DNA from: Massalongia carnosa
Taxonomy: Eukaryota
NCBI GenBank assembly: GCA_965645245.1
Contig: OZ287078.1
Location: 248,001-312,000 of the forward strand
Length of the DNA stretch: 64,000 nucleotides
Reading direction: 5' to 3'
The notes beneath the pieces were generated by a model. That model was not told the origin of the DNA. It was given only the letters and a program-made list of their open reading frames with translations, and made no database searches. The translations under genes and the position numbers were made by a program. The stretch's first letter is position 1, and the number at the start of each line of letters is the position of its first letter. Below, one piece after another: positions 3,039 through 49,000 of the stretch.

Positions 3039-5174
3039 CCCTTCGTCTGGCAATTTGGCAGCTATTTAGGTCAATTTTACACGCGCCGTCTCCGGGTAAT
3101 GACTACTAACTTTAATCTGGCCAATCAGATTTTCCCTTTTCAACGATAATGGGTACAACACCTCAATCACCCCTCATGATCTATGTAAAATTTCACAACA
3201 TGCCTACTTTTTGCAACATAGTCCACAGCTCTTACATTGCCATCTGGTCTGACTTGCACGTCGTCTTTTGGTGCAATTTTCATCAATTTCCGCAAGTGGT
3301 CGGCGTCGTTTGAGTCTTGGCACTTGCCTTTTGCAGGTCAAACAATAGTCCTTCTTATTCAAATGCTCCTATTTGCAAGTTGACTCGACGTCTTTATTAA
3401 CGTCTTGATTAGTAGTAACTATGACATCTGTCGGACGTTTCCGTAGGGCACCGGCTTGATTGGATAGTAGGGCATTTACTATTTCTTTTTGAAAGTCCAA
3501 ATGGCTGAGTGTTGAATTCGGATAGAGAATTCTCCACAATTTGAAGGCATTTAGAACGGCTGCATCCAGAAGAAAGATGAAAATTGACCACCAGTAGCGA
3601 CGATCAGATCTTTGAGGTGAATAATATGCTCTTTGCTGAGCATTCCCATCTGACCCGCCCATGTGCTGGTTATATTCCACGATGGGCATGGGAAATGGAA
3701 GCTTTTCTTCTTCATCATCAACGATGACTCTGGAATTTGCAGGAATTCCATGACGTCGACGGGAATTCTTGTAGAAAGAAGTCTTCAAATCCTCAATTGT
3801 ATGAACCGTGGTCATGAATTGCACGGTGTTTAAATCCACCCATGCCATACACAGAATGTCCCCGTGATCAATGTTTGATTTTTTACTTTTATTTGCAGGT
3901 ACCGTCATCAATGCCTTCTTTCCCCAGTCCTTATTCTTGGTGGCTGCAACCCTCAGACGTAGAAGATCAACAGGAAAACCGCATCCTGATTTAGCCGTCC
4001 CACAGGCACCAATTCCAATGGTTTTCAGAGCTTTGAATAGCTTCGTATTTGTGAAGAAATTTTCCAGAAAGATGACGTATTTCAAGCCTTCATTAGACGG
4101 TAAACTTCGAGCCAGTTGAATGACGACTAGGGAGGAAGGAGACAAATCCCATTTGGTTGTCGGAAATTTCAATTGTCCAGGCGTTTTTAACTCACTAATT
4201 TTGGACACCTGTCTTGCAATTAGTACGATGCAAAATTGAGGCCTTTTCTACTCACCTTGGAGGTAAATAAGAAGTCAAAAAGATAATTTTCCTGACATAA
4301 ACTATAGATTTTGAAGCCTACACCAGCCGCCTTGGTGGCTATTTGCATAGTATGGCAGCTCCTACCCCTGAATAAAATCAATTGCTCGTCAACTGACACA
4401 TGACTTCCAGGAATCCAGTATTTCTTTGATGCTTTTCGAAAGTCTATGGCCAATGGTTCCAGCTTTTTCCACCAAGCAGGGCCTCGAGTATCAATGATCT
4501 CATCTTCGTCGGGGTTGGATATCTTCAAAAATCGCTTGAGTTGCTCCCATCTTCGAAGACTCATGGCTTGAATCATCATGTCATATATGGCAAATTTAGG
4601 AGACGTGTTCCAATAGTCAGTAAGACGTGGCATCAGTGTATACCCCATATATAACAGAATTCCCAGAAAGCTCCTACTTCAGAAGAAGAAGTGTCATGCC
4701 ATTGACGTCTCTTGATGTCGTTTAGGGCATACTTCTTTTTCGCTTTAAGATTGGTGTTTTTAGCTATGATTTCAAGCATTTCAAAGCTAAAGAAGAGACA
4801 GAATAAACTGAAAGGAGTCTGATTTATCAAGCGCAACGTCTCGTCCGGCTGTGGTTTTCGAAATGGGATCGAAATTGGACAATAATTTGATGACGGAGGG
4901 GGCATGGAGTCAATTATGCTTTGTACGCTGGGTTTATTCTTTTTGGCCTGTTCTTTCAGAATTGAGGGGGGCAAAGCGTCTGATTGGTCAGGAACTTCTA
5001 TCTCAATGCCTCTCATGATTATTCTAAAGAAATTGTAGATGTTTTAATGATTTTCAACTGATGTTTACCTTCTTATTTACAAAAAAAGGGGAGAATGCTT
5101 TGAAGTTCGCGACTCAGCCCTACGGTATTTCACTAAGCCTATTTAAGGTGGCTGCCAAATTGCCAGACGAAGGG
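3039..5174 (-). mobile_element. piggyBac-superfamily DNA transposon 1 (defective)
   Basis: Perfect 24-bp TIR CCCTTCGTCTGGCAATTTGGCAGC at both ends, flanked by AT (3037-3038, 5175-5176); encodes a PGBD-type transposase. Confidence 0.92.
3190..5016 (-). pseudogene. piggyBac-type transposase pseudogene with one intron (4209-4255)
   Basis: Motifs VSVDEQLILFRGR, GFKIYSLC, YNQHMGGSD and a Cys-rich C-terminus. Frameshift near 4665, second catalytic Asp reads Glu (FLENFFT), premature TAG at 3369. Intron GTGAGT..CTAAT..CAG. Confidence 0.88.
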
Positions 5175-7442: not shown

Positions 7443-7514
7443 GTTATGAGCCCGGTTAGCAATATGCAATATCATTTCCGCTGATCTTTCCATTTTCGAC
7501 ATCGACATTAGAAC

Positions 7515-14769: not shown

Positions 14770-14782
14770 TCAGGTCTCCTCT

Positions 14783-17935: not shown

Positions 17936-17990
17936 GCAGATATTCAGGGGTTTCTTGATCTCGGGTTTCTCGGTCTCAGGTTTCTCGGTC

Positions 17991-19840: not shown

Positions 19841-19879
19841 GGCAAAGGCGTACCAGCTGATAGGGTAGGTCGAACGTAG

Positions 19880-20103
19880 TGTGACGAGAAGGACTCAATG
19901 AGATAAGATCAGGTGGTACGAAGTCTTTGCTATATGTAGGCTATCGGATATTTACAAGACGTTCGACAAGGAAGAAAGAAAATCTCAACAGCGAAAGCAA
20001 AGATCCGTTGATCTCGCTAACCATGCTGAGCCTAGCCCTCGCTTATCATTCAAGCCTTAGCGCCGTGACTCGATTCGGGTGCTAGCGAGGTAGTACCGTA
20101 ACA
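19880..20103 (-). repeat. Gypsy-1 5' LTR (224 bp)
   Basis: Matches the 3' LTR except for a 9-bp deletion and 2 substitutions. Confidence 0.95.
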
Positions 20104-20120: not shown

Positions 20121-21338
20121 ATGCCTCGATACAGCAACAAGCTTCTTTTACAAAGAGATCTGTACCACCTTTTCTTAGCCAGTAGTACTCTTGCCACCTC
20201 TTCCAATGAGGCCGATGACGCTTTGGAATACCTCATTCTTTCTGAAGGATTAAAGGATCAGAGATATCTTTTTTCCAGATCTTCCATTCTCAAGTCCAAT
20301 TGGGCCGTTCGAGTCCTTCCCACTCTTTCAGATGATCGATATCGAGGCTATTTACGAATGAGTCTTATCTCCGTTCAACGAATAGTTGATTTAATTCGAT
20401 CCGATTCGGTCTTCCAAAACAATTCCAATATTCAACAGGCACCGGTCGAAAGTCAACTTCAATGTGCCTTATACAAGCTTGGTCATGATGGTAGCGGAAG
20501 CGGGTTTCTTTCAACTGCCACCTTTTGGGGAGTATCCGAGGGACACGTTTTCGATTGTACCAAGCGAGTGGTGGAGGCCTTATGTCGGTTGAGGAATAGC
20601 TTCATCAAATGGCCAACTGCAAGAGCTAGGACAAGAGAAAGCTTAGCCAATGATACTCGAGAATCAGGATTTATCGGAGTAGTAGGAAAGGTGGATGGGA
20701 CGGATATAGTGCTCAGTACCAAACCTGCAGGTCGTTATGACGGCGAATTATTCTTTAATCGAAAGAAAAGATACGCCCTGGATTTATGTGCCGTATGCGA
20801 TTCCGACAAAAGATTCATTTACTTCCTCAGTGGTTGGCCAAACTCTCAGCACGATCAGAGAATCTTCGCGGCGGGAGATTTGAATAGAAATCCTCATCTT
20901 TACTTCTCGGAAGGGCAGTATCTTCTCGGCGACAGTGCCTACACCAATTCTCGCTATTTGGTGACTCCATACAAGGCCCCTCATACCAGAGATGCGAATG
21001 TTCGAAAGTTCAATAGAAGACTGTCTCGAATTCGTATTGACATCGAGCACACCTTTGGAATTTTGAAAGGAAGATGGAAAAGTTTAACCGGGCTGAGATT
21101 TCGAATTAGAAACAAAAAAGGTTACATCTACGCCATTCGTTGGATTACTGCATGTGTAGTACTGCATAACGTTTTGTTGGACATGCATGATGAATGGGAA
21201 GAAGAAGAAGGATGGTGGACATCAGAAGAGGAGGCTCATGATGAAGAATTAAAACATTTGGCTACAAGGCAAATGATGGAGGGCATTTTGAAAAGGGAAC
21301 AGGTAAAAGATCTAGTTCTCAATGATATTGGCAGATGA
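20121..21338 (+). CDS. PIF/Harbinger transposase (HARBI1-like), intact
   Basis: 405 aa with catalytic motifs VDGTD, GDSAY and RIDIEHTFGILKGRW, plus ACVVLHN. Confidence 0.92.
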   Translation: MPRYSNKLLLQRDLYHLFLASSTLATSSNEADDALEYLILSEGLKDQRYLFSRSSILKSNWAVRVLPTLSDDRYRGYLRMSLISVQRIVDLIRSDSVFQNNSNIQQAPVESQLQCALYKLGHDGSGSGFLSTATFWGVSEGHVFDCTKRVVEALCRLRNSFIKWPTARARTRESLANDTRESGFIGVVGKVDGTDIVLSTKPAGRYDGELFFNRKKRYALDLCAVCDSDKRFIYFLSGWPNSQHDQRIFAAGDLNRNPHLYFSEGQYLLGDSAYTNSRYLVTPYKAPHTRDANVRKFNRRLSRIRIDIEHTFGILKGRWKSLTGLRFRIRNKKGYIYAIRWITACVVLHNVLLDMHDEWEEEEGWWTSEEEAHDEELKHLATRQMMEGILKREQVKDLVLNDIGR

Positions 21339-22356: not shown

Positions 22357-22474
22357 CTTTATTTTAGAACTGTTGGGGCTGATTCTGAGAATTTCTATTA
22401 ACTAGATTTTGAGCCCTGACAAGAACACCCTGACAAGAACAGTGGTCAGCTATGAAAGAAGACGAGGTAGTAGT

Positions 22475-22660
22475 TGTTGAGGTACACACGGAGATAAAGC
22501 GATTAGGAGATATCGCAGTTAGCATTAACTTAGTAGCTTATCAAGCAAATGAAGCATTGCGCTTTCGTCACCGGTCGTCATGACTCGTTTAGGACTAGCG
22601 TAGCAGTATATAGACGAGCTCAGCTCAGTTCAAATCAAACATCCTTTTTACACCCCAACA
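22475..22660 (+). repeat. Gypsy-2 5' LTR (186 bp)
   Basis: Matches 33791-33927 plus 36096-36144 with one substitution seen. Confidence 0.93.
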
Positions 22661-22792
22661 AATGGTAGCACTTGATCTGCTTCTTTCGCTTCTGCCTGGC
22701 ACCATAGACTGTTAGACATAGCACCAGAAGAGAGCTCATCAGCCTCTCACCAAGCCCTCCGAAGAAACCAAGTTCCATCTAGGTTTATAAAC

Positions 22793-23131
22793 TATTGTAA
22801 TTGAAGCTCTGCTGGCATAGTAAAAAGCTCACTTTTGAAACGATTGATCTTTCTATCTACCTATCTAAGGACCGTGTTTATATAGATAGAAAAACATGCC
22901 GAAAACCGTTCTCCCTATGACTCACCTTCCTGCTTCCTAGAAATCTAAGATTGGTGATTGACTCATATCCAATTTATGACTCGATGGGAATGTTCATAGA
23001 AGTTTTGCGGTGCTTCTCGAGGTCGTTATGTGTTGCCTAATGTTCTTACCAACGCACTAATCCCAATGCGGTACTATGTGACTCTGAACACTTTACTAGG
23101 CATCAGCCGGGTGACTTTGCACATTACAACA
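22793..23131 (-). repeat. Copia-2 3' LTR
   Basis: Identical by eye to 27609-27947. Confidence 0.95.
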
Positions 23132-23249
23132 CTCCCACTGCAAAGTTGCCAGGTGAGTAATAATATCCTAAACGCCGGTTTCCAATCTGATTTTGTGTGG
23201 CCTATGTGGTCAATTTAGGTGGCCTTATGATGAAGCGTCCTCCATCTTC

Positions 23250-26200
23250 CTATGCCTCTCTTAGGCCTAATTTCTCGCGCAACTTTCGAAAGATAGGTGC
23301 CGCCAGTGGTTTAGTGAAGATATCTGCCACCATATCGTGAGTGGATACGTGCTGTATAGTGGCATAGTTGTCTTCAACGACCTCCCGAAGATAATGAAGC
23401 TGAATATCCATATGTTTGGACCGACTATGGTGCTCAGGGTTTTTTATCAAATCGAGCGTACCCTGATTGTCGCCATTTAGGATAATTGGTAGGTTCATAT
23501 CTTTGGAGAAGTTCAACTCTCCGAACCATCTAGTTGCCCACACTATATCTTTTGAAGCCTGGCACATGGAAGAATACTCTGCTTCCATGGTGGATGTGAC
23601 GACTGACCGTTGCCTCTTACTGGCCCATATAACTGCCCCGTTTCCTAGCATCAGAACGTGGCCATATGATGATTTTCTATCATGGTTATCACCATACGCT
23701 GCATCAGCATAACTAGTGGGTCCGGTGTCATTGGGTTCGTAGGTAAGTGCCAAATTCGTGGTCCCATTCAGATATTTTATGAGATGGTCTACCGCGTTTC
23801 GGTGCCTAATTGCTGGATCGTGCGTATATTGACTAAGCTTTCCAACTGCTTGGGCAATGTCTGGTCGCGTGTTGATCATCAAAAACATCAAACTCCCTAT
23901 CCGTTCTTGATATTCTAATTGGTTTGTCCTAGGTTCGTTGACGATGGCAGGACTGCATGCATCATAGTTGATCATAGGGGTAAGGACTGAATTTGCTTTA
24001 TCCATCTTATATTTCTGCAGGAAGCTGCGAATGTAAGATGATTGGTCAATCATTATTTTGTCTTTCTCGCGACGTATGCGAATCCCTAAGATGAACTTTG
24101 CTGGCCCTAAGTCTTTCATATTATATTCCTTTATTAGTAGACTTTTGAGCTCCTTTATGGCTGTCATGCTTTTGGAAAATATCAGAAAATCATCAACATA
24201 AAGGCTAATGATAACGTGGGTAGTGTGATTAACGAACACACAATTGTCTCCTGAGAGCGCTTTGAAACCAATGGACGTTAGATAATTGGTTATCTTTTTA
24301 TTCCATCCTCGGCCAGATTGTTTGAGACCATAGAGTCCTTTCAGAACGCGCAACACATGGTTCGTCAGATGTGGGGGAAGCACCAAGCCTTGGGGAGGCT
24401 CCATATAGATTTCGTCATCTAGGGAGCTTTGCAAGTATGCGTTTGGTGCGTCCATGTGCTCAATATGGAAGTTATATTTACATGCGAAATATAGGAGCAT
24501 TCGTAAGGATTCATACCTTAGGGTGGGTGAAAACGTGTCCCCATAGTCTGTCCCGGGGATTTGTTTGAAGCCCCTTGCTACTAATCGTGCTTTATAGCGG
24601 TCAACATGGTTAGTAGGGGTGTATTTCACTTTGAAGACCCATCTAGCGGTGATGATGTTCTTATCTGCTGGTCTTTCAACATATTTCCATGTATTATTGG
24701 CGGCGAGAGCATTTAATTCGTCTTGAATAGCAATTTTCCATTTGCGATGGTCAGTGCATTGCATGGCCTGATTATATGACTGCGGCTCGTACACTTTGGA
24801 TGGTTGTTTTGCTATATTTGCCCGGTCCCGGTCCTTTTTGTTTCCATAAGAGTTATCGAATTCGTATCGGTTATACACATCTTTCCTGCGGTTGGAACGT
24901 CTGGTAGGTGATGAAGAAGGGGTTCTATTTGTCTCCTGAGTTTGGTTGTTTTGGTGCTGGGCACCTGCATCATCTTGGTGCAGATTATCCTGAGCACCTG
25001 CATCATCATCCTGATGCTGAATACCATCGCCCTGGTGCTGATCACCATTAGTAGGAACTCCCACTTGATCAGTAGTAGGGTGGTTGGTTGGTGGTGACGA
25101 TTTATTGTCATCGGAAGAGTCATCGTCATTTAGGACGACGGACGGGGATGATAGGCCTTTTGTAAGTAAGGATCCCCCCGGTCTTTTTTCATCAAACTTT
25201 ATTGAAGTCTGAATTTCCACCTTTTTTGTTTCCACATTGTATAACCTATATTGATAGCTTGAATGATACCCGGTGAATATTGCCTGATATGACATATTAT
25301 CTAGTTTGGAGCGTTTTTCCTTTGGGACATGCACAAAAGAGACGCATCCGAACGTACGAAGAGTGTTGATGTTAGGTCTTAGCCCGGTCCAAGACTCATT
25401 AGGCGACGTGGTGTTGGTGGTAGGTAAGAAGTTTCTGAGGTGGTTTGCTGCTACTGCTGCTTCCCCCCAGAAAAATTGTGGCAATTTGGCCCATACCAAC
25501 ATAGACCTTACCATTTGAACAATGGTTCTATTGAACCTTTCGGCGACACCGTTCTGCTGGGGCGTGTATGCGGTGGTTGGCTCCATACGAATTCCTAATG
25601 GCTGAAGTTGCTCTGCGAGATATTTATACTCTTTGGCATTATCAGCACGAAAGCGAATGATTTTGAGCCCCTTTTCCAACTCGACCATTGCCTTCCAGTC
25701 TTTTATGATGCGGTATATGTCTGCCCTACTTTTCATACAGAAGAGCCAAGATTTTCGGGTATAGTCGTCTATCAAAGAAACGAAATAGGTATGCCCACCT
25801 AAACTGGCCTTCTTATATGGACCCCAAACGTCAGTATGTATTCTATCGAGTGGTCTATTTGCCTTCGAGAAAGGAATTTTGCTGATTGTACGGGTCATCT
25901 TAGTTAAATTGCAAATCTGGCACGGTAGGTCCAGAATTGCCTTTGAAAGTTTCTTCCCTGTTGCTTGTTGAAGTCGTATATCATTGGGGTGCCCCAATCG
26001 TGTGTGCCATAACCAATATTGGGCCTCATTGGTGGCCTCATTGGTGGTCTCTTTGGGTGCTCCCACTGGATCGCTATCGATGCAGTCAGGGGTAATAGGA
26101 GGAGGAGTTTTGGGTTGAATTTCGCCGGAGGAAAGCGAGGTCAGATATGTGGTTGATTTAAGGTTTGCCGGTGGTTCGGGGCCATCTAAATCATCATTTT

Positions 26201-27485
26201 CATCATGGGCTTCGAGGGCCACATGAGATGTGTGGAGGAAGTACGCCCGTCCCCTAAGAATTCCGGTAGCGACCAAAGTACCATCCCTGAAAATCTCGAC
26301 ACCTCTCCGGTTAAATGAAACGTTCAAACCCTTCCGATTAAGGGCTGCAATTGATAGCAAGTTGACGTCTAGTTCAGGCACGAATAGAACGTCTGTCATC
26401 CGGATATGTTTCCCATCGATATTGGTGCAAATCGTACCTACTCCTACGGAGAAGAGTTTTTCGCCGTTTGCAATTCTAATGGTGGTCCGGTATGGCTTGA
26501 TTTGGGTGAAGATCGATTTGTTGTATGTCATATGCCTGGAGGCTCCTGAGTCAATTACCCATCCAGGTGAGTGTTGACCATCTTGCGCCATCCACGCACT
26601 ATCCTCACTATCACTATTCGATTCATCCTTTGCTGCTCGTGCTGCCCCCCTTCCTCTCGGTTTGTTTTTGGACTCATTAGGGTGTTCTTTGACCCATTTT
26701 TTATCTTCATCTGTGTTGTCCTGCCAGTCCCAGCAATCATTGCTATTATGCCTCTTTGGGCAATGTGAGCATTTGGGGATTGCCTTACCCTTGTTAATGG
26801 CCTTATTGGCCGTCTCGGTCTCTTGCCCATCTTTTAGTCGTTGCTCCACCCGTTTTAGGCTTTCCAGAGTCTTTTCTAATGTGGGATCACCAAGGTCTTC
26901 AAGGATGAACTTCGCGGTGTCATAAGCTGGGTCCTTAATGGCGTTCATGAGGGTCATGGCCACAGACAGATCTGATGGCTGTTCTGAAGTCTTTATATCT
27001 GCGATTTCCATCGCAAGGTTCTGCAATTCATTGGCGACCTCATCGATGGGTTGATCGACTGACATTTCATATGTATAGAATTTTCTGTGAAGCACACATA
27101 TTCTGCTTTTGGCTTTGACTGCATGGACGTTCCTCAATGCTGCCCAAACATCCTTTGCGGTCTCCTTGTTCCTAACAGTGACATATTGAGACTTTTCTAT
27201 ATTGCCCCTGATCCAGAGCTGTGCCTGAGTGTCATCAGTAAACTATTCCTCATAGTCTTTTGGATGGGTGACAGGGTCTGGAGAAGAAATGGCCCCGTTT
27301 ACTATCCTCCACATCCTTTTAGATTTGAGAAGAAGTTGCATGTCATCGGCCCAGGTCAGATAGTTGTTGGACCCAAGCTTCGGCTCTACTTTATAGTCTC
27401 CTTTTCGAATGGCTTTTGAATATGATCCATCAGGGGTTGTGCCCTCTTTCGCGGGAGCTGCGGAATCGCTCTCTTTTCCAGACAT
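23250..27485 (-). pseudogene. Copia-2 gag-pol polyprotein with one premature TAG (27243-27245)
   Basis: ORFs 27243..27485 and 23250..27137 share a frame. WVIDSGAS protease; WHTRLGH, HTDVWGP and QNGVAE integrase; YKARLVARGF and LYVDD RT; YADAAY RNase H. Confidence 0.93.
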
Positions 27486-27608
27486 GGTCCAATAATAGGA
27501 GAACTGATGGATGGAACGAAGAGAAGTATGGCTTCGTAACTTTGAAAAACAACAGAATAGATAGATTAATTTATGCGGAAGAAAAAATTGCTTTCCGGGC
27601 TCATAAAC

Positions 27609-27947
27609 TATTGTAATTGAAGCTCTGCTGGCATAGTAAAAAGCTCACTTTTGAAACGATTGATCTTTCTATCTACCTATCTAAGGACCGTGTTTATATA
27701 GATAGAAAAACATGCCGAAAACCGTTCTCCCTATGACTCACCTTCCTGCTTCCTAGAAATCTAAGATTGGTGATTGACTCATATCCAATTTATGACTCGA
27801 TGGGAATGTTCATAGAAGTTTTGCGGTGCTTCTCGAGGTCGTTATGTGTTGCCTAATGTTCTTACCAACGCACTAATCCCAATGCGGTACTATGTGACTC
27901 TGAACACTTTACTAGGCATCAGCCGGGTGACTTTGCACATTACAACA
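27609..27947 (-). repeat. Copia-2 5' LTR
   Basis: TGTTGTAAT...ATTACAATA on the minus strand, followed by the PBS. Confidence 0.95.
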
Positions 27948-33750: not shown

Positions 33751-33927
33751 GCCAACGAGGGCGCTGGCGATCTTTTCAAAGGGGGGCACTTGTTGAGGTA
33801 CACACGGAGATAAAGCGATTAGGAGATATCGCAGTTAGCATTAACTTAGTAGCTTATCAAGCAAATGAAGCATTGCGCTTTTGTCACCGGTCGTCATGAC
33901 TCGTTTAGGACTAGCGTAGCAGTATAT

Positions 33928-36093
33928 CCCTCTCGCTGTCATTCTAGCACCCCCCTCCCAAGCTAATCTATATTGGACTAGCTTCCGCACCGATGAGTCA
34001 TCAGAACATTAGTTTTCTCTAGAGTGTTTGCGCGTTTGTTTACTTTTCAAAGAATACTATTCGGTCATTCAATCAAAATAAATCACATAAATTACTATTC
34101 TTCTAGCTTCGGAATTGATATTATAAGTATGACGCTCAATGAAGAAGAAATCCCGAGTGTATCAGACAAATCTCCCATTTCAGCGAAGCAACATAAAATA
34201 AATCGCAAAAGAAGTGTTCGGGATATTTTAATCGACCTTCCCCCTATTTCCTCAAAATATACCCCCATTCGGGTTGAAAACAGGCCTTTTGTTCCGCTCG
34301 TTGAAAACGATTCTCGAAATCCTTTGGGATTATTTCGGTTATTTATAACAAGGCAGCATTGTCGTATCATCGCAAATCATACCAATATCAAGGCAAATAA
34401 CTACATGGAAAAGGAGAAGGAGAACAATCATCGGGTTTGGACTGACACTACTGACTCGGAAATTGAGGTTTTTTTGGGCATATTAATTCTTATGGGACTC
34501 GATCATCTACCTGCTACAGAGGATTATTGGAATCAACGTCCTGACAAACCAGTTATCATGCCTATTCTGTCCGCGATGTCGCTTGGTCGATTTCAACAAA
34601 TCAAACGATTTTTGAAAATCAATAATGGACAGACTGAGCCTATCGGACTTGGTCAAGGACCTGATTGGTGGAAGAAACTGGAACCGTTGGCTACTGATTT
34701 CCGAAAGACTTCATTGAAACATTGCAGACCAGGAAGTATGATATCTATAGATGAACAGCTGGTGTTATTCAAGGGCCGTTCTCGACATACCTTGCAGATT
34801 ACTACAAAAAGTGCCCATAAAGGATTTAAAATCTACAGTCTCTGTCAGGATAATTATCTGTTGTCATTTATGTTTGCCTCGAAGAGTAGCAGAATAAGTG
34901 AATTGAAAACAGTCAGACAATTGGGATTTTTGCCAAAAGATAAACTAACTCCTAGTGCTTTGCTAGTGATTCAGTTATGTAAAGAACTTCCATCCTCACT
35001 GAATTATCATCTTTTCTGTGATAATTTCTTTACTAGTACGAAATTATTCAAGGCACTTCGATCAATCGGAATAGCTGCCAGTGGAACTGCTAAAAAGGGC
35101 TCGGGCTTTCCAGAAGAATTGTTGGCCATACGGGACGTCACTTCAAAAGGAAAAGACTGGGGTCTTCAGGCCCATATGGTGGTCGACGATAAGGTGCTTT
35201 GTATGGGCTGGGTGGATAATAATGGTGTGCAGTACATGACCACCGGTCATTCTCCTCAGGACTTGTACGAAATGCACTATATAAATCCGCACAAGAGATA
35301 TGGAATTCCCGAGACCTCTCTTCAACCTATTGTATCGTATTTCCCATCAACTCTGGCTCACTCCATTCCCTTGCTCAATCAAGAGGTTCAACGGCCCTTA
35401 GGATTACCGATACCAGCCCCAATCAAAGAATATAATCTTCATATGGGGGGATCGGATGGAAACGCTCAGCAACGAGCGATTTACTCATACAATCGTCGAA
35501 CGGATCGTTACTGGTGGCCTTTGTTCATTTTTATTTTAGATGCAGCCGGATTGAATGCCTATAAACTTTACTCGCTGAACTCTTTCGATTCCGAGGAGAT
35601 AAAATTTACTCGTTCTGAATTTCTTCGTCGGATTGCTCTTGAACTGATATCAAATCAAGCGGGCATCAGGCCCGGCTCATCAAAGATAAGCATCAATACC
35701 ACGATTGATGCTTTAGTACCATCTCCCATTCATCATTACGTTCGTCTTGAAGGCAGAAAAAGAAGTGTGCAATGTAACGCCGAGAAAAAACGACCTTCAA
35801 AGCGGAAGGGAGAGCCACTGGCTGAAATAAGTGTCGATGGGCGTAAAAGAAGGCGAAGGGGTGCTCAGACTATATGGGCTTGTGGAGGATGTAATCCAAT
35901 CAGGCCCTGCTGTAAGAAAGCCAGCTGTTGGGAAGCTATTCATATGATAGGGGACGAGTAAATAGGTATCTGATACTCCGTACAACTTCTTGTGAATAGG
36001 AATAACATTGATTGGTCAAAAGTTTAAGGTTTAGCGCTTTCTAACCAACAATGGTTTAGCTTGGGGGGGGGTGCTAGAATGACAGCGAGAGGG
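33928..36093 (+). mobile_element. piggyBac-superfamily DNA transposon 2 (apparently intact)
   Basis: About 38-bp TIRs CCCTCTCGCTGTCATTCTAGCACCCCCC...AAGCTAA with one indel, flanked by AT. Confidence 0.94.
34129..35961 (+). CDS. piggyBac-type transposase, uninterrupted and intronless
   Basis: First ATG at 34129; DDD triad in SIDEQL, FCDNFFTS and YNLHMGGSD; basic NLS-like stretch and Cys-rich C-terminus. Confidence 0.92.
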   Translation: MTLNEEEIPSVSDKSPISAKQHKINRKRSVRDILIDLPPISSKYTPIRVENRPFVPLVENDSRNPLGLFRLFITRQHCRIIANHTNIKANNYMEKEKENNHRVWTDTTDSEIEVFLGILILMGLDHLPATEDYWNQRPDKPVIMPILSAMSLGRFQQIKRFLKINNGQTEPIGLGQGPDWWKKLEPLATDFRKTSLKHCRPGSMISIDEQLVLFKGRSRHTLQITTKSAHKGFKIYSLCQDNYLLSFMFASKSSRISELKTVRQLGFLPKDKLTPSALLVIQLCKELPSSLNYHLFCDNFFTSTKLFKALRSIGIAASGTAKKGSGFPEELLAIRDVTSKGKDWGLQAHMVVDDKVLCMGWVDNNGVQYMTTGHSPQDLYEMHYINPHKRYGIPETSLQPIVSYFPSTLAHSIPLLNQEVQRPLGLPIPAPIKEYNLHMGGSDGNAQQRAIYSYNRRTDRYWWPLFIFILDAAGLNAYKLYSLNSFDSEEIKFTRSEFLRRIALELISNQAGIRPGSSKISINTTIDALVPSPIHHYVRLEGRKRSVQCNAEKKRPSKRKGEPLAEISVDGRKRRRRGAQTIWACGGCNPIRPCCKKASCWEAIHMIGDE

Positions 36094-36529
36094 ATAGACG
36101 AGCTCAGCTCAGTTCAAATCAAACATCCTTTTTACACCCCAACAGTAGTATTCTTACCTTAATTGTACGATTCGTTGATGCCGTTGATCATTTACCTTAT
36201 AATTCTGATGAATGAGGTTAGTAGATTGAAGGATTTATGAGATCGGGTTTATGAGATAATAGTTTATCGGTCGATTTTGACCGATAAACCATTATTCCCG
36301 TGTTCCCGTATTATAAAAAAAAGGGGTAGAGTTAAACCTATATAGGTTTAGTCTGCTTACTAATATTTACGGGAAAACGGGAATAATGGTTTATAGACTC
36401 GAAAATTTCTACTCTGAAAACCCCTAATATATTTTTGTTTGATTTCGGGATTAATATATCGGATATTCTGTCACATTTCGATTATGATTATCTTATTTCC
36501 TGATTACCAGACATTTCTTCGAAGGAATC

Positions 36530-40085: not shown

Positions 40086-43000
40086 ATGCCTCCACGCGCC
40101 CACATCCAGAGTGACCCGGATGAACCGATCTCATCGGGAGGCATCATCAACCTCATCCCGGACCCGCACGTGCTTGGAGGCGTAAATGCAGAACTCGGCG
40201 CAGACGATTGGGGTCCCAACGACGCGCGAAAGAGGAGGTGGGAGCGTGATCATGGGGATTTGACATCACGAGAAGCAACAAGCTCGCACCCGCCGTCCGT
40301 CCAAGCGGTGATGGATCGGGAATTCAATGTCCCCTTGACATGGCAATCAGGAGAAACTGCCGCTTCCTTGATCTGGGCAGCGTGGTCGGTGCTGGCGTCA
40401 CGCTGGACCGGGAGCAAGAATGTGGAGTTTGGTGCGACGAGCGTGGAGAAGTGGTCGGGAGAAGCGGAATGCTTAGAGCAAGCAGAATCCTCGATATGGC
40501 CAGTTCACATTCACGTGGATGGAGGCCAGGATACAAAAACGTTCATGGAAAGTATTCGGGAAAAGGCGGCGAAGAGTCTAACGTCAAAACTGACGCGACA
40601 GAATGCCCAGCGGAGCAGACGCGATGCCAAAGCAGCATGCAGTGTTCAAACGATCCTGATAGTCAGCGAAGAAGAATCTTCCACCGCAGGCTTCAATTCG
40701 AAGCTCGGCGCATATGCCTTGGTTCTGAGTTTCTGGCCACAAGGCTCGAAGATCAAAGTTCAAGCCAAAATTCGATCCGATGGTACTTGGCTCGACGCAG
40801 GCACGGTACATGATGGCGCAGCTTGAACGAGTCTTGCAGCAACTGGGCACAGAGAGTATTCGTCCCCCGAGAGTGGAAGATATCCAATGTGTGAGCCGAG
40901 AAGACTTGCAGCAGATCTGGAGCTGGAACGCCAGTGTTCCCGAGCCAGAGGAGAAGTGCGTGCACGATCTAATCTCGATTCAAGCGAGGCACAATCCTCA
41001 CGCAACCGCAGTTTCTGCGTGGGATGGAGAATTGAAATACGGCGAATTAGACTTGATTTCCTCGCGTTTAGCGATGCATCTGACGCAACTCGGAATAGGG
41101 CCCAACTGTCTTGTGCCGCTCTGTTTCGAGAAATCAATGTGGACCCCGGTGGCAATGGTTGCGGTCATGAAGACGGAGGCTGGTTTCATTCTGATGGATG
41201 CAGACCAGCCAGAAGCGCGACTCCAGGAGATTGTGAAGCAGGCGGGAGCAACATTGATCGTCTCATCCGCTGCGAATGTCGATGTCGTCGATCGGCTGAC
41301 ATTTCAGTCAGTGGTGCTTGATTGGCCGAATGTGGAAAAGTTTAACTCTCGATCACTGGTCAAGCAACAAACGTCACCATCATCGACGCTCTACGTTGCT
41401 TTCACGTCAGGCAGCACAGGCACACCCAAAGGAGTTGTCACCACACATACCAACTTCGCGTCCGCTGTACATCAGCCGGCAGCACTTAATATTAACGCCA
41501 CTGCAAGGGTTTTTGATTTCGCATCGTACAATTTTGATGTCGCGATAAACAACATACTGATGACCCTCGCCATGGGCGGTTGTGTCTGCGTTCCGAGCAA
41601 CGCGGAACGTCAAAACAACCTCGAAGGGGCGATAAATCGAACACAAGCAAGTGTGATGGAACTTACACCCTCTGTGGCTCGCTTGATAAACCCTACGGCC
41701 GTCCCTAGCATCACTTTGTTGAATCTTGGAGGCGAGCAGCCTAGTTCGTCTGATATCATTCCATGGCTTCCTTATGTAGAGGTGATCAATACATACGGAC
41801 CAGCCGAGTGCACAGTCACGACGGTTGCCAACACTCGGATTTCCAAGATGAAAGATGCCGGAGCACGAGCATAGGGTATGGTCTTGGTGCTGTGACTTGG
41901 ATTGTCGACATCTCTGACCACAACGGTCTTGCTCATCTTGGAGCCGTTGAAGAGCTTGTCATCGAAGGGCCTCTTGTCGGTAGGGGGTATCTAGGTGACC
42001 CCGAGAAGACGGCGGACGCATTTTTCCAGGACCCTCCGTGGCTTCCGCTGGAGCGACATGGATGCCTTCTTTACAAAACCGGGGACCTGGTGCGCTATCG
42101 GCCCAACGGATCGATCGACTATGTGGGGCGAAAAGACACGCAAGTAAAAGTGCGCGGACAACGAATTGAGTTGGGCGAAGTAGAGCACTACCTTCTTCAT
42201 TGCCTACCCCAAGGAGTGGAAATCGTGGCAAAGGTTATCGAGCCCAATGAAAGAGCCGCCATGCTTGTAGCGTTTCTTTGCTTGCCTGCCGATGAGGTAA
42301 AGAAGCACGTGGGAAGACTCGCCACACAACTAGACGCGCTCATACCTGGATACATGATCCCATCGGCTTATGTAGCAATCGAAAAGATGCCAATCACTCT
42401 TTCCGGGAAGACGGATCGCAAACTGCTGAAAAAAGCGGGTGCTTCGCTGTCGCCTGAGCAGATGATTGTGGACTCGAGCGGATTGGGCGCTGAAGAACGA
42501 GACGAAAAACCAACAACTCCCGTGCAATCTAAGCTTCAAGGTCTTTGGGCGCAGGTTCTCAACATAGGGATCGCTTCTATCAGCTTGAATTGCAGTTTTT
42601 TTGTGCTAGGCGGGGATTCAATCTTGGCCATGAAACTAGTTGCAGCGGCACGAGAAGAGGGACTACTCCTAACGGTGGCAGATATCTTTCAGAAGCCACG
42701 GCTAGGCGATTTGGCTCGAGCGGGCATAGCGGTAAAAGGTGTGGTTGAATTAGAGGCTATCCCACCCTTCTCGCTGCTTCCGCCTCATACCGAGGACGCT
42801 GTGCGCCAAGCTGCAGCCGCGTGCTGCCAAGTTGATGAAAAGTCCATTGAGGATATCTATCCATGCACAAGTCTGCAAGAGGGTCTTATAGCACTGACTG
42901 CCAGACAAAATGGTGCTTATGTTGGCCGTAACGTGCTCAAGTTACCGGAGACGACGGATCTAAAGCGCTTTCAAACTGCATGGGAAACCGTGGTGGCCAA

Positions 43001-46000
43001 CAACTCCATATTGCGCACACGCATTGTTCATACAAGTTCAGGCTCGGTGCAAGTAGTCCTCAAAAGGGCAGAAGGCATCCAATGGCTGTACGCAACCAAT
43101 GTTTCCGAGTATCTAGAGTGTGATAGAAGCATGCACATGACACCAGGAAGCAGTTTGGCTCGATGGGCAATCATTTCTCCGACAAATGGCGTGCCGTCCT
43201 TCATCTGGACGGTTCACCACGCTCTTTACGACGGCTGGACCTTTCCCATGATCGCCGACCAATTCCACCAAGCATACTACGAACAGCCACTTCAGCGGGA
43301 GGTAGGATACAACATCTTCATCAAATATCTGTCCATGCAGGATCATGATGAAGGCCGTGTCTTTTGGCAAGCGCAGCTCGCCGGAGCGAGAAACAGTTCC
43401 GTATTTCCGATCCTGCCCACAAAGTTTCATGAACCATTACCGAAAGCGTCCGCAGAATGTCAAATAGCAATCCCATCCAATAGTCAATTAGGAATCACGC
43501 TCTCATGCATTATTAGGGCAGCCTGGTCGGTCTTAGTGGCAAGGCTCATTAATGCCGATGACATTGTGTTCGGTGCTACGCTTGTAGGCCGCAACGCGCC
43601 TATACTAGGCGTAGAACGAGTAACAGGCCCAACGATAACGACGGTGCCGGTCCGTGTGAAAATAGATCCAGAACAAAACTCAATCGACTTTCTTGCTAAT
43701 ATGCAGAAACAGGCCGCGAATATGATGTCTTATGAACATGTGGGCTTGCAAAACATTAGTCGACTTGGCGAAGACCCCAAAGCCGCTTGTGGGTTTCAAA
43801 CCTTGTTGGTGATTCAACCGCGGGATGAAGCAATGACGGAAGAAGACGTGGGTCAAATGGAAGTCATGGAAAGGTTGTTCGATAGTCTAGATGCCTTGGA
43901 TATGGGTGGGAAACTGGACAGTTTCAACTCCTACCCTTTAATGCTAGTGTTCAATCAAAAGAAGAATTGTGTGTGCGTTCAAGTTAGCTTCGACGAGACG
44001 GTGATTCCGTCAGCTTCGGTGTACCGTTTGCTTGGTCAGATCCAGCGAATCATGCAACAGCTGTGCGTAGCAGCAGAGGACCTTCCACGAAAAGTTGGTG
44101 ATATCGATTGCATGAGCGAACGGGACTTGCAGGACATCTGGCATTGGAATGCAACAGTCCCAAAGTCGGCTCGAAGATGCATACACGACCTCATATCAGA
44201 ACGTGCTCTGCAGCAGCCATCGGCAAAGGCCGTTTGCGCACATGACGGCGATGTCACATATCAAGAATTAGAGGACTTGTCCACCAAATTGGGCCAGCAT
44301 CTTGTTAAGCTTGGTGTAGGGCGGCAAGATTTAGTGGCCCTATGTTTTGAAAAGTCGATTTGGACGACTATCTCGATGCTAGGCGTATTGAAGGCCGGAG
44401 GCGCATTTGTAGCGATGGATATGACTCAACCCGAACAGCGTCTGAGGGCAATAGTGCTGCAAGCCGAGGCAAAATTGGTTCTAACCTCAGCGGAGAAAGT
44501 AGAGCTCTCAGGAAGATTGGGAGCGCCGACCATAATGGTAGACGCTGCGAACATCGCGAAGCTCGACGGTCCCAGGGTGAGTGGCAAAGTAACTCCGACC
44601 AACGTGACCATTTCTAGCAGTTCAGCAAGTCTCCTGGAGCCGTCATCAACCGCTTTTGTGGTTTTCACTTCCGGCACCACTGGGATTCCAAAAGAAGTTA
44701 TTATCAGTCATGAAAACTTCTGCTCGGCATCAGAATACCATGTAAAGGACCTCGGATTTCATTCGGAATATAGGGTTTTCGACTTTGCTTCCTATAGCTT
44801 CGACGTTGCCATAGACAACGCCCTCACAACCTTGATCAACGGTGGTTGTCTCTGTGTCCCACACGACAAAGAGAGGAAAGATGGAATTGAGGATACCATG
44901 GAGCGGATGAAGGTTAACGTAGTCAATCTAACCCCCTCCGTTGCGAAACTTCTCGATCCCTTGGCAGTTCCGTCGTTGAAAGTCTTAATCCTGGCTGGAG
45001 AGGCAGCAGATGCAGAGGTGGCAGCACGCTGGTCTTCGAGGGTTCATTTGATCAATGCTTACGGTCCTGCGGAATGTCAAACCTGTACTGTGGGCACACG
45101 AATCACTAAGCCCGAGGACACCGCTAGCATTGGGCGAGGATCTGGATCCGTGACCTGGATCGTTGATCCCATAAACTATAACCGCCTTCTTCCCGTTGGC
45201 GCTGTGGGCGAGCTATTGGTTGAAGGTCCCATAGTAAGTGAAGGGTACTTGAAAGATGCAGAACGAACAGAAGCTGCGTTCCTTCATAATCCTATTTGGC
45301 TGGTAGAGGGCTTCAAGAACCAGCTGGGGCGTCGCGGACGTCTCTATAAGACTGGTGATTTGGTTCGTTACGGCTCCGACGGAACTGGAGTGATAGAATA
45401 CCTTGGTCGAAAGGACAGGCAAGTAAAGATGCGCGGTCAGCGAGTGGAGCTTGGAGAGATAGAATATCAAGCGAAACACGCTCTTTCCAAGAGTGTTACG
45501 GAGGTTGCTGCAGAGGTCATTGAACTCAATGGAGCTCAGATATTGCTGGGATTCGTATGTCTTCCAGATCGGCAAACGCTTAGCAGAGGGGTCCAGACAG
45601 CTTGCCATGAGGCGAACGACAAAGACAACCCTGTTTCTAGGCTGAATTTGATATTGGCTGGAATAGAGGAGAAATTGAGCCGTGTGTTACCTGCCTACAT
45701 GATCCCTACTGCGTTTGTTCTGGTTGACAAAATGCCAATCACAGTGACTGGAAAAACAGATCGCAAGCTACTCAGAGAAATGGCTTTATCACTTCGTGAT
45801 CAGTGGATTTCTTCGAGATCATCAGAATTTAGAGAAAATCGAGAACTCTCTACTAGTATGGAGTTTACTCTACGAGGGCTCTGGGCTCAAGTACTGGGTG
45901 TAGACGCTGTGTCTATTGGAGCAGACGAAGATTTCTTCCGGCGTGGGGGAGACTCGATCACAGCAATGAAACTGGCTGCAGCAGCACGAAGCCTAGGGTT

Positions 46001-49000
46001 ACCTCTGAAAGTACCAGACGTATTCCAATACCCTTATCTTTCAAAAATGGCTGCAATGATGGAGTCTCAGAAAGTAACGGTAGGAGCATCGTGTATGCCA
46101 GAGTTTATTGTTCCGTTCTCGTTGCTTGGAGCGACTTTCGACAAGGAGGTTGTAAGGAAAAAGGCAGCTCTACTTTGCGGCGTCGCCGATCCAGCTCTCG
46201 TCGAGGATGTCTATCCGTGTACACCAATGCAGGAGGGCCTAATGGCACTGACAACGAACCATCCAGCGTCATATGTGAATCGCAGTATCATCAAATTGTC
46301 TCCACACACGGACATTGTGCGCCTCCGCAAAGCATGAGAAGAAGTTTTTGGGTTACATGCAATACTACGCACAAGAATTGTCCAGATAGATTCGCTGGGA
46401 TCGGTTCAGGTTGTATTGAAGGAAGCTATCGCCTGGACCTCTTCAGGCAGTCTTTCTGGATAATTGACACAAGATGAACTTGATTTTATTGTACCTGGTG
46501 GTCGCTTAACTCGCTTCGCTGTGATCTCTAGAACTGACGAACACACCTGCCTGGTCTGGACTATACATCACGCCCTCTAAACGATGCTTGGACAGTATCC
46601 CGAAACGTCTCACAAGTCCGTGAGGCATATCGTCAAAATGGAGTTACCACGATGTCCAGCGTAAGCTTCAACACGTTTATCAAGTACGTTTCAACCCAGG
46701 ATCCCGGGGAGAGCCGTAGATACTGGCAATCGCTACTTTTCAAGGCCGAGAGCAGCTCTACGTACCCTCCGCTACCAAATAGTACTTATGAACCACGTGC
46801 AAGATCAATGGCAAGTTACCAAGTGGCCTTTCCGTCTAGGTTGATTTCATCATCAAGGGTCACAATATCTTCAGTTATAAGAGGGGCATGGTCTATCGTG
46901 ATGGCAATTATCATTGGATGTGATGATGTAGTCTTTGGCACAACTCTAGTGGGCCGCAACGCACCAATTGTAGGAATAGAACATATGTCAGGTCCGACAA
47001 TTACGACAGTCCCAATCCGGATACGAATAGACTGGAATCAAAGCCCCACCGAATTTCTCGACGACCTACAGAATCAAGCGGTACAAATGATGCCTTTTGA
47101 GCATACCGGCCTTCAGACGATAAGCAAAATCGGTGCCGACGCTAAGGCCGCAGTCAACTTTCAAACACTATTAGTTGTGCAGCAACCCAGTGATCCCAAC
47201 ATCGAATTCGACGACGAAGCATCCATCGAGAAGCTGTTCCAATGTTATGACCTAGATGAAAGACTCGATGATTTTAATACCTATGCATTGATGCTCGTTT
47301 TCTCGCCCGAGAAGGAGATTATCAAGCTCCAGGCCAGCTTTGATCATGTCGTCATGCCTTTACAGCAAGTGCAGCGCTTGATGAGACAGCTAGAACGAGT
47401 CTTACAGCAACTCTGCTCTGATCCATTGCCGCGAGCGGTCAAAGATATTGAATGCATAACCCAGGAGGAATTGCAGCAAATCTGGACCTGGAATAAAACA
47501 GTACCTGAACCTGTAGAGCAACGCGTTCATGATCTGATATCGATGCGGGCTAAGGAAAGCCCTAATGCAACAGCAATTTGCGCATGGGATGGCGAATTGA
47601 CATATGAGGAGTTGGATGGGTTATCTTCGTACCTTGCACATGACATGAGAAACCTCGAAATCGGGCCCCTAGTGCCTCTTTGCTTCGAGAAATCGCTCTG
47701 GACATCAGTGGCCATGTTGGCAGTTGCAAAAGCTGGAAGTGCGTTCGTCGCGTTGGATGTTAATCAGCCAGAAACGCGACTGAAAGCAATTACAGACCAG
47801 ACTAGAGCACAAGTGATCCTTTGCTCAGTGGTTAACCAGGGTATCGCCACTAAACTGGTTGACAGCGTTGTCGTCATCAGTCGAGAGAGCATGGAGAAGC
47901 TCAAGAAAGACCGGTACGCCTTCTCCAGTTGTCGCGGTCTTCCTCACGGCTCTGTTCTCTCAAATGGCCGAGCATTATGCCATGAGGACGAGTTGTCAAA
48001 CGGCTACGAAGTTTCCAGTAGCGATACTTCCAACGACACACAGAGTTCTTCATCTCTTCTCTACGTTGTTTTTACCTCCGGTAGTACCGGTAACCCAAAA
48101 GGCGTCATGATTACACATAGCAACCTTTGTTCAGCAGCCAAATATCAATCCGCAGCTCTTGGGATTTGTTCCCAGTCAAGAGTATTTGATTTCTCCTCTT
48201 ATAGTTTTGATGCATGCATTTTCAACTTTCTGTATACGATGCTTGCTGGTGGCTGCTTGTGTGTTCCATCAGACATAGACCGCCGAGAGAATATCGCCAA
48301 GGCCATGAATTCAATGAATGTCAACCTGGCCCTTTTAACGCCTTCGGTCTCGCGCTTACTGGATCCCAGGTCAGTACCTAAATTGAATGTACTATTGCTC
48401 GGGGGCGAGGCTCTTGCAAGCTCGGACGTATCGATTTGGATGAACGTAGCACAAGTAACGAACCTCTACGGCCCAGCGGAATCCACCATAGTCAGCACCG
48501 TTAACAGACAGATTATCAATCCAAATCACGCTGCCACTATTGGCCATGGTCTAGGAACGGTTACATGGATTGTTACCGATAACAATAACCTAGCACCCAT
48601 TGGAAGTGTTGGTGAACTGTTAGTTGAGGGGCCGCTCGTTGGCGCAGGCTACTTTGACGACCCCACAAAGACTGCGGCTGCCTTTGTCTCTGATCCATCA
48701 TGGTTAATTAGTGGATACCCTATCACAGGGTTAGGGCGTCGAGGTCGCTTGTATAAAACCGGAGATCTTGTACGTTACAATGTTGGGGGATCAATTACCT
48801 ATGTTGGCCGTAAAGATACGCAATCAAAACTCCGCGGTCAACGAGTTGAATTAGGGGAGGTAGAGCATTACCTAGGAAAGTTTGTGATTCAGGCCTTCGG
48901 AATCGCTGCGGGCGTGGTGGCAAAGGTCATTGAAATCAACGGAAGCCAAAAACTTATAGGCTTTATATGTCGTACAGAGTCAAAAGTTGATTCAACCAAG

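Follow-up and report, generated by a model that had tools for sequence, protein, structure and literature searches.

A DNA transposon of the piggyBac superfamily with CCC...GGG termini was identified at positions 33928..36093 (+) of the window, which here means the whole analyzed stretch of 64,000 nucleotides. The element has a length of 2166 bp; an earlier note on this DNA had recognized it but given its span as 33921..36100, which takes in flanking bases. As expected for piggyBac membership, its inverted ends start with CCC and close with GGG and are perfect over 28 nt, the left one at 33928..33955 (+), with an imperfect continuation for about 45 nt, and the right one at 36066..36093 (-). 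The 23-mer end sequence has two exact matches in the window against zero expected, at 33928-33950 (+) and 36071-36093 (-), and the inverted repeat was also recovered by an independent search. An exact scan of the metagenome contigs with a 22-mer end sequence returned no loci. The element is flanked by TAT on the left (33925..33927) and ATA on the right (36094..36096), in which 33926-33927 and 36094-36095 are the two copies of a duplicated AT. The junctions read ...GTAGCAGTATAT^CCCTCTCGC...GCGAGAGGG^ATAGACGAG..., where the caret marks the border of the element.

The transposon interrupts the 3′ LTR of a Ty3 chromovirus. The 5′ LTR of this retrotransposon (22475..22660, +) is 186 bp long, and the interrupted 3′ LTR (33791..36144, +) consists of the pieces 33791-33927 and 36096-36144, which also amount to 186 bp without the 2168 inserted bases. 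GTAGT, the target site duplication of the retrotransposon itself, is present at both of its sides (22470-22474 and 36145-36149). As stated in the earlier note, the two LTRs are one base apart once the inserted bases are removed (1 difference in 186 bp, C vs T at LTR base 92), and judging from this comparison the window copy is a later insertion than its host retrotransposon. The host is a lichen-associated fungus of the Pezizomycotina: the named relatives of a neighbouring NRPS all belong to this group. Lichen metagenome is the label of one sequencing run containing the element.

A second piggyBac-like element, which is decayed and belongs to a different end family, was found at 3039..5174 (-). 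It has 27-nt perfect inverted ends with the flanks cgtTAT^CCC...GGG^ATAgcc, and its transposase remnant is frameshifted and 34-58% identical to the transposase P0001 described below.

The transposase and the apparent activity of the family

The open reading frame of the transposase (P0001, 34129..35961, +) is open over 610 amino acids and carries the domain PF13843 (DDE_Tnp_1_7) at residues 64-478 as well as a C-terminal Cys-rich domain. The match to PF13843 covers the complete profile (1-349 of 349) with an E-value of 8.9e-53 and 180 bits, the cutoff being 22.4, and is the sole match of the Pfam scan. Structures matched in the PDB are 6x67 (Trichoplusia ni piggyBac, E 3.6e-17) and 9c0f (piggyBat, E 4.9e-15). 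For D208, D298, and D443 the counterparts in 6x67 lie in the motifs IDEQL, CDN (CDNWF), and GGxD (GGVD); counted from the 6x67 alignment they are D268, D346, and D447, the catalytic residues of the T. ni enzyme. No Tc1/mariner family was found in the Pfam scan of the transposase, and the unfilled site described below does not fit the TA duplication of such elements. A search of a protein atlas for relatives yielded generic arthropod piggyBac clusters only.

The C-terminal Cys-rich tail is kept in the relatives (YCxxC...CxxC..CC...C..H in the A1 consensus). The window copy has a serine at residue 546, the first cysteine of the CxxC motif in this domain, where the family has cysteine: its codon at 35764-35766 is AGT, sister copies have TGT, position 35764 is T in all four sequencing runs, and cysteine is present in 9 of the 9 other cluster members covering residue 546. 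The earlier description of an intact open reading frame with all three Asp residues holds, with the correction that Ser546 replaces the family Cys.

At 90% identity the protein cluster of the transposase comprises 56 members on several Mb-size contigs, and one sequence, P0041, identical to the window protein apart from residue 546, was found on five contigs. By these sequences the transposon family looks recently active, and the window copy, with its perfect ends, can presumably be mobilized. This would probably occur in trans by sister copies which keep the cysteine, given the Cys546Ser change in the zinc-binding tail of the transposase that it encodes itself. The proposal that the element moved recently and may still be active thus suits the family, while the window copy itself has this private substitution.

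Unfilled sites and flanks of the clade

The sister 5′ LTR contains the unfilled target TATA at 22609..22612, with 22610-22611 being the AT that is duplicated in the 3′ LTR. The sequence AGCAGTATATAGACG occurs once in the window, at 22602-22616 within the 5′ LTR. The unfilled site reads GTATATAGAC, and the filled 3′ LTR reads GTATAT[2166 bp]ATAGAC. Further copies of this LTR show the unfilled form as well, in each of the four sequencing runs: contigs from X4 (two), X3 (one), and X6 (one, a diverged copy) skip exactly 2168 bases, the joint being ambiguous by two bases, and in run X5 the unfilled form was seen as two loose ends. The net gain against the unfilled site is therefore 2166 + 2 bp, which gives the target T-AT-A with a duplicated AT. 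Integration adds the element and 2 bp, and the copies end in TAT^CCC...GGG^ATA. This confirms the AT duplication proposed in the earlier note, or, in the equivalent reading given there, an insertion with TCCC/GGGA ends and no duplication; an insertion at TTAA with a 4-bp duplication, as in canonical piggyBac, is not present at the window element. The 2-bp figure derives from a single fully resolved event, since the window insertion is the one with both junctions and an unfilled site. The window target is part of TATATA, and slippage is possible in such a short TA run.

The flanks of all resolved ends were also compared to all loci in search of unfilled paralogues, and the L010/L012/L033 element was the only usable case. 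Its right end reads ...CCGGGGTAT^CCC. Three unfilled paralogues of the repeat (L023, L013, L025) read ...CGGGGTATACGTA, and a fourth, upstream in L010/L033, reads ...CGAGGTATACATA, all four with TA-TA at the junction. As the left end of this element is deleted, the site tests only TATA at the junction and not the duplication length. The right flank of L023 is 83% identical to the paralogues and has ACTAC vs the expected TATAC, being too diverged to read.

Flanks were surveyed across 79 metagenome loci as well as the window, with ends located by their end sequence alone and the flank ignored. This yielded 30 ends, which belong to 9 end families and show 24 distinct flanks. All 24 have T at -3 and A at -2, and 23 have T at -1, the exception being one end (L025) with TAG^CCC. 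Position -4 is free (G9 C7 A5 T3). TTAA was found in 0 of the 24 distinct flanks, and thus copies with the canonical site, which would have spoken against the proposal, did not turn up in this survey. In all end families the T/A pair lengthens the inverted repeat by one base. Further copies of the window family continue 4 nt past the termini into ATAG or ATAT and then diverge, as read from two contigs of X3 and one of X5 among the matches listed.

Three candidate readings were rejected. A TTAA^CCC located 7 nt inside the ends of L016 is not a canonical terminus, because the inverted repeat runs outward to TAT^CCC and the independent copy L023 matches up to TAT and diverges beyond. The CCTCT on both sides of L032, outside TAT/ATA, was taken as a chance repeat and not as a duplication, since no other locus has one. 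A 1.5-kb "insertion" in the open reading frame of L026 is not a nested transposon; it is an intron common to L001, L002, and L005.

In the transposase tree, which was built by a quick search from 66 rows and has several long branches, one branch with an SH-aLRT of 100 on both sides splits the rows by flank: the window and all 26 rows with a TAT label are on one side of it, and all 11 with a TTAA label are on the other. Six of the 26 TAT labels (L007, L017, L019, L020, L024, L027) come from a search for TATCCC/GGGATA itself and are circular for those rows, and the inverted repeats of L019 and L020 are weak. The TTAA side comprises 33 rows, 22 of which are without resolved ends; TTAA flanks occur only on the side away from the window, and one change of the flank state is needed on the tree. 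The suggestion of the earlier note, a piggyBac lineage of fungi that targets T-AT-A, is thus supported by the 24 flanks, by one fully supported branch and by a second unfilled site with TATA.

The two sides also differ in the omega loop. The Y283 column is N, K, M, or Q on the TAT side, with no aromatic residue in 27 filled rows, vs Y/F in 25 of 33 rows on the TTAA side. At K290 the TAT side has D13/E3/K4 and the TTAA side R/K in 29 of 33 rows. Column 281 is T/I vs K/R (32 of 33), and column 282 is mostly M vs Q (29 of 33). Y439 and N440 are conserved on both sides. According to the work on solved piggyBac complexes, the omega loop shapes TTAA and the Tyr-Asn pair contacts two flank bases, the T at -3 and the A at -2 (PMC7351741). 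By this comparison, the changed register seems to go with a remodelled omega loop. The T at -3 and the A at -2 are identical in TTAA and TAT-type sites, and the Tyr-Asn pair which contacts them is kept.

Alternative readings and the proposed mechanism

Every copy can also be written as TA^TCCC...GGGA^TA, i.e., as a plain 2-bp TA duplication with TCCC...GGGA ends, and a related element, Ti-tr1, is so described in PMC3864998. Under this reading, the sister LTR would have its additional TA through an unrelated microsatellite difference, for which the TATATA run leaves room through slippage. This predicts the unfilled sequence GTATAGAC, but the sister LTR and the other copies in 4 of 4 runs, including the diverged X6 copy, have GTATATAGAC, so that a private loss of TA would be needed at the exact insertion point in an LTR which otherwise differs at 1 of 186 positions. 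TA-TA in all four unfilled L010-type paralogues would be expected only by chance, at about 1 in 16. Overall, a TA duplication seems very improbable. Still harder to credit is a canonical TTAA-specific piggyBac with mutated flanks or a single aberrant integration. A survey of 157 elements records ATAG, ATAT, TTAT, and ATAA as rare flanks of single sequences and explains them by mutation (PMC5381638), but here TAT was found on 23 of 24 distinct flanks in 9 end families, none of them TTAA, the flank type follows one deep branch of the transposase tree, and the unfilled sites contain no TTAA. Barring misassembly of these loci, the mutated-flank reading is refuted by the survey, the tree, and the second unfilled site.

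A blunt insertion free of duplication, in which both strands of TATA are cut in the middle (TA^TA) and the ends are TCCC...GGGA, corresponds to the equivalent reading of the earlier note, with such ends and no duplication. The sequences indeed fit equally: a blunt cut predicts the same filled and unfilled forms as a 2-bp stagger, the T/A pair that extends the inverted repeat in all families would belong to the element, and eukaryotic cut-and-paste transposition without a target site duplication is reported for the Spy group (PMC4122938). However, CCC/GGG adjoin the target bases across the superfamily, and so they do at the loci with TTAA flanks in this data set; by this homology the reactive 3′ end would lie at GGG. 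An offset of 0 bp would depart more from the canonical 4-bp spacing of the active sites (PMC7351741) than one of 2 bp, and a blunt cut would forfeit the complementary overhangs by which seamless excision would be explained. All in all, blunt insertion is considered unlikely.

The reading preferred here, and held to be probable, is that of a cut-and-paste transposon from a distinct clade of the piggyBac superfamily, which integrates at the palindrome 5′-TATA-3′ and not at 5′-TTAA-3′ and duplicates AT via a 2-bp stagger. The clade is apparently hosted by filamentous ascomycetes. On either strand, the transposase would link the 3′-OH at the ...GGG terminus to the A of 5′-ATA, with strand transfer staggered by 2 bp vs 4 bp in canonical piggyBac, and the central AT would be duplicated. 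From the junctions we infer a cleavage offset of 2 bp, which corresponds to the "different cleavage geometry" of the earlier note. By analogy with piggyBac, excision would proceed through hairpins formed in the flank, 2 nt from the element border. The AT overhangs left by them would be self-complementary, so that seamless repair back to TATA would be retained. It is slightly favored, with less confidence than the preferred reading, that in the ascomycete clade as a whole strand transfer and hairpin formation moved from a 4-nt to a 2-nt register, that the specificity changed from TTAA to TATA, and that self-complementary overhangs and hence footprint-free excision were kept.

Relation to known systems

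TTAA targeting together with a 4-bp offset is treated as a defining and mechanistically fixed property of piggyBac, and TTAA targeting had been thought to hold across this widely used family. The structural paper states that the 4-bp offset is mandated by the placement of the active sites within the dimer (PMC7351741), and a large mining effort of 2025 retained only elements with a TTAACC-like motif (PMC13461360).

Canonical piggyBac (T. ni IFP2; 6x67/6x68) and piggyBat (9c0f) share with the clade PF13843, the DDD triad, Y439-N440, a C-terminal Cys-rich domain (with Ser546 at its first Cys in the window copy), a single-ORF element of about 2.2 kb, CCC...GGG inverted ends, and an AT-only palindromic tetranucleotide as target. 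Canonical piggyBac targets TTAA and adds 4 bp, whereas here the target is TATA, 2 bp are added, -4 is free and T instead of A stands at -1; the omega-loop columns Y283, K290, 281, and 282 are replaced across the clade, and the identity to 6x67 is low (E 3.6e-17). PiggyMac and Tpb2, domesticated piggyBac transposases of ciliates, act at TA-centred sites and not at TTAA, and PiggyMac is a host gene without inverted ends which produces 4-nt 5′ overhangs centred on TA. In contrast, the elements described here are mobile, have inverted ends and show a net addition of 2 bp. Spy, which is PIF/Harbinger-related and has no target site duplication, is likewise a cut-and-paste lineage departing from the duplication length of its superfamily, but reportedly belongs to another superfamily with another target (PMC4122938).

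Similar in description is Ti-tr1 from Tuber indicum (Belfiori et al., 2013; PMC3864998), which is an ascomycete element with PF13843, the DDD triad, 52-bp inverted ends, and no TTAA. There its flanks were called a TA duplication and its classification "unclear"; TA is what would be noted at a TAT^CCC end with the T assigned to the element. Different from Ti-tr1, an unfilled sister site is available here, which is TATA with 2 bp added and excludes a plain TA duplication at this locus unless slippage lost a TA from the LTR. These non-TTAA flanks, reported as a "TA" duplication, reduce the novelty of the present lineage but do not remove it. A TATA target or an AT duplication for piggyBac was not found described in the literature searched, with Repbase and subscription journals lying outside it. 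The clade likely explains the "unclear" classification of Ti-tr1 and possibly the "mutated" ATAT/ATAG flanks of the 2017 survey.

If the register has indeed shifted from 4 to 2 nt, the clade would be a natural and mechanistically distinct second "seamless" piggyBac system, overlooked because surveys demanded TTAA or put other flanks down to mutation. TTAA-based annotation pipelines would mis-delimit or miss such elements in Pezizomycotina and lichen genomes. As a clade with TATA and a 2-bp addition in which the catalytic core and the CCC/GGG ends are retained, it would allow comparisons of how target sequence and offset are set by the omega loop, and its transposases are candidate tools for genome engineering at another integration site.

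The window element and its unfilled sister site

A 2166-bp element with perfect 28-nt inverted ends is located at 33928-36093, inside the 3′ LTR of a Ty3 chromovirus, and its junctions in the window sequence read ...GTAGCAGTATAT|CCCTCTCGCTGTCATTCTAGCACCCCCC...GGGGGGTGCTAGAATGACAGCGAGAGGG|ATAGACGAGC.... These borders were assigned because the 64 kb contain a 23-nt terminal motif at exactly two places, 33928-33950 (+) and 36071-36093 (-), with none expected from shuffling, and because a repeat finder independently recovered the same inverted pair. The sole ORF (34129-35961) codes for a transposase of 610 amino acids, P0001, which covers the whole Pfam profile PF13843 (E 8.9e-53) and matches the solved transposases of Trichoplusia ni piggyBac (6x67, E 3.6e-17) and piggyBat (9c0f). 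It is intact, as an earlier note had described it, with the three aspartates D208, D298, and D443 located in the IDEQL, CDN, and GGxD motifs, respectively. Homology of the transposase, its catalytic triad, and the CCC/GGG ends place the element in the piggyBac superfamily, as does the Cys-rich tail, in which one conserved Cys is Ser in this copy; the hallmark of that group, a TTAA target with a 4-bp duplication, is lacking.

The chromovirus encodes RT, RNase H, SH3, and a chromodomain and is flanked on both sides by its own GTAGT duplication. Its 186-bp LTRs lie at 22475-22660 (5′) and at 33791-33927 plus 36096-36144 (3′, split by the element). At the homologous place the 5′ LTR reads GCAGTATATAGACG, an unfilled site, and the two LTRs differ at one position once 2168 bases are subtracted. 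Contigs of other LTR copies from the sequencing runs X4 (two contigs), X3, and X6 (one each) omit exactly these 2168 bases, with two ambiguous bases at the joint, and among the contigs listed for X5 two loose ends show the same unfilled form. What was inserted thus amounts to the element plus 2 bp, and the target T-A-T-A was turned into TAT[CCC...GGG]ATA. Both the net addition of AT only and the single base separating the host LTRs, as claimed in the earlier note, were confirmed in every detail. A Ty1/copia element (22782-27897) is nested in the chromovirus as well; its 300-bp LTRs (22782-23081 and 27598-27897) are 99% identical, and its pol ORF is found at 23250-27065 on the minus strand.

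Flanks and phylogeny of the relatives

In the metagenome collection no locus matched the end sequence exactly, and a profile-guided scan yielded 79 loci encoding relatives. Element ends were located by inverted-repeat sequence alone, ignoring the flank; 30 were obtained, from nine end families, and their flanks comprise 24 distinct sequences. In all of these, T occupies position -3 and A position -2; T at position -1 is shared by 23 of the 24 (L025 has G), and position -4 is free (G9, C7, A5, T3). Seven relatives and the window element show TAT|CCC...GGG|ATA at both resolved ends; among these relatives, L003 and L014 represent one insertion. More distant relatives, with 22-26% identity, carry the textbook TTAA|CCC...GGG|TTAA. 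A second, decayed element of another end family (3039-5174) also lies in the window; its inverted ends are perfect over 27 nt and are flanked by TAT/ATA. The minus-strand transposase remnant of this element is spread over three frames and shares 34-58% identity with P0001. The sister-copy contigs listed for the window family extend 4 nt beyond the termini (ATAG, ATAT) and then diverge, which fits invariant ATA/TAT flanks.

A second unfilled site was found for the element in loci L010, L012, and L033, whose right end lies within a dispersed repeat (...ACCACCGGGGTAT|CCCTTAAGC). This repeat also occurs in four unfilled paralogous copies: those in L023, L013, and L025 have the sequence ...CGGGGTATACGTA, and the one upstream in L010/L033 has ...CGAGGTATACATA. 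Here, too, the junction falls exactly on TATA; since the other end of the element is deleted, the site informs on target sequence, not on duplication length.

In a maximum-likelihood tree computed from an alignment of 66 transposase rows and 441 columns (quick IQ-TREE search), a single branch with an SH-aLRT of 100 on both sides divides the rows 33 to 33. One side (TAT side) holds the window element, all 26 TAT-labelled rows, and 7 unlabelled ones, the other (TTAA side) all 11 TTAA-labelled and 22 unlabelled rows, so one change of flank state suffices. Six TAT labels (L007, L017, L019, L020, L024, L027) stem from a motif search and are circular for those rows; the other 20 were obtained from resolved ends or the flank-blind end-sequence search. 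From these sequence comparisons, TAT/ATA flanking appears as a lineage property and no accident. The earlier proposal of a fungal piggyBac lineage with a T-AT-A target is thus supported at lineage level by the flanks, the tree, and the second unfilled site.

TATA is the target, 2 bp are added net, and the TAT/ATA flanks are invariant. In the mechanism proposed here, on each strand the GGG 3′-OH would be joined to the 5′ side of ATA, giving a 2-bp stagger, hairpins at excision would form 2 nt into the flank, and seamless excision would be retained via self-complementary AT overhangs. The sequence alone is equally compatible with a blunt cut in TA|TA and element ends of TCCC/GGGA, a reading which we hold to be rather improbable. 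A plain duplication of TA is unlikely, as it needs a private loss of TA in the window LTR at the exact insertion point and leaves the TA-TA at the L010/L012/L033 site to chance.

The inverted ends of several families start with CCCTTAA. In L016 (3818-3830, 5982-5994) a canonical-looking TTAA|CCC sits 7 nt inside the true end and was rejected as the terminus; annotation tools based on TTAA would mis-delimit such elements. At L029 (5952-5965), and also in L007, L008, and L009, the sequence beyond a right end runs ATATATAT and on into CCCACCTTGTCGG..., resembling the TAT|CCC end of another element, and TAT-flanked elements may stack side by side at TA-rich junctions. One X5 contig joins window position 36097 back to 33924, right end to left end, via 25 bases (ATAG, 17 nt, ATAT), which suggests either two family copies placed head to tail with 25 bp between them or an assembly path that runs from one end into another.

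TTAA contacts, earlier reports, and activity of the window copy

In T. ni piggyBac the omega loop (R275, Y283, K290) is described as holding the TTAA hairpin and target together with Y439/N440; N440 reads A(-2), the methyl group of T(-3) lies in a hydrophobic pocket, and the 4-bp offset is dictated by where the active sites lie (PMC7351741). These residues were mapped via the gap-free P0001-6x67 alignment. At column Y283 the TAT side has N12, K9, M4, and Q2 (aromatic in 0 of 27 filled rows) and the TTAA side Y15 and F10 (25 of 33 aromatic). Column K290 is D13, E3, K4, and others vs. R21 and K8, column 281 T14 and I11 vs. K27 and R5, and column 282 mostly M (15/27) vs. Q29. Y439 and N440 are kept on both sides. 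Kept Y439/N440 and a changed omega loop fit the flanks, as T(-3) and A(-2) are identical in TTAA and NTAT; the positions altered would be those handled by the loop.

A Tuber indicum PF13843 element without TTAA was reported with flanks read as a 'TA' TSD and its classification left unclear (Belfiori et al., 2013; PMC3864998). Rare ATAT/ATAG-type flanks were ascribed to mutation (Bouallegue et al., 2017; PMC5381638), a mining study of 2025 filtered for a TTAACC-like motif (PMC13461360), and the PiggyBac records for Pezizomycotina in Muszewska et al. (2017; PMC5751038) come with no duplication detail. A TATA target with AT duplication was not found described in the searchable literature, a scope that excludes Repbase and subscription journals.

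The 90%-identity protein cluster of P0001 comprises 56 members, located on several Mb-scale contigs; its member P0041, on five contigs, differs from the window protein only at residue 546, so that the family looks young. This residue belongs to the Cys-rich tail, where it forms the first Cys of a conserved CxxC. In the window copy it is Ser546 (codon AGT, 35764-35766), all other sampled copies have TGT, and Cys is present in 9/9 other cluster members covering the position; the four sequencing runs likewise have TGT, with T at base 35764. Since the Cys-rich domain is reported as essential for piggyBac transposition (PMC5861402), the window copy is probably non-autonomous, although its perfect ends could be mobilised by sister copies. 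Of the recent movement and possible activity claimed earlier, recent movement agrees with the family's apparent youth, and autonomous activity of this copy is doubtful.

Genomic surroundings and gene structure of the relatives

The left 37 kb of the window form a transposon nest. Two further LTR pairs lie at 14534-20103 and 7292-12999, one of them enclosing a chromovirus pol ORF (14783-17935, minus strand), and a PIF/Harbinger transposase ORF was found at 20121-21338. Just downstream of the 3′ LTR, a 27-nt inverted repeat (36284-36394, 96% complementary, 57-nt spacer) looks like a hairpin or MITE. A multi-module NRPS gene (40086-56992) with adenylation, condensation, and carrier domains extends over several ORF pieces, presumably separated by introns, and is followed by a methyltransferase (57823-58716, minus strand). 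The named NRPS relatives are all from Pezizomycotina, among them lichen-fungus genomes obtained by metagenome assembly, and one run containing the window element carries a lichen metagenome label.

In four relatives the transposase gene is split at a common point near residue 255, by stretches at ~4576-4626 (L001), 4756-5052 (L002), 4756-5066 (L005), and 2540-4001 (L026). With GTATGT...TACTAAC...AG, the L002 stretch reads as a fungal-type spliceosomal intron; its L001 copy looks mutated, and the window copy of the gene is without it. L026, like some other loci, has a high AT content and Asp-to-Asn changes, a pattern suggestive of RIP.
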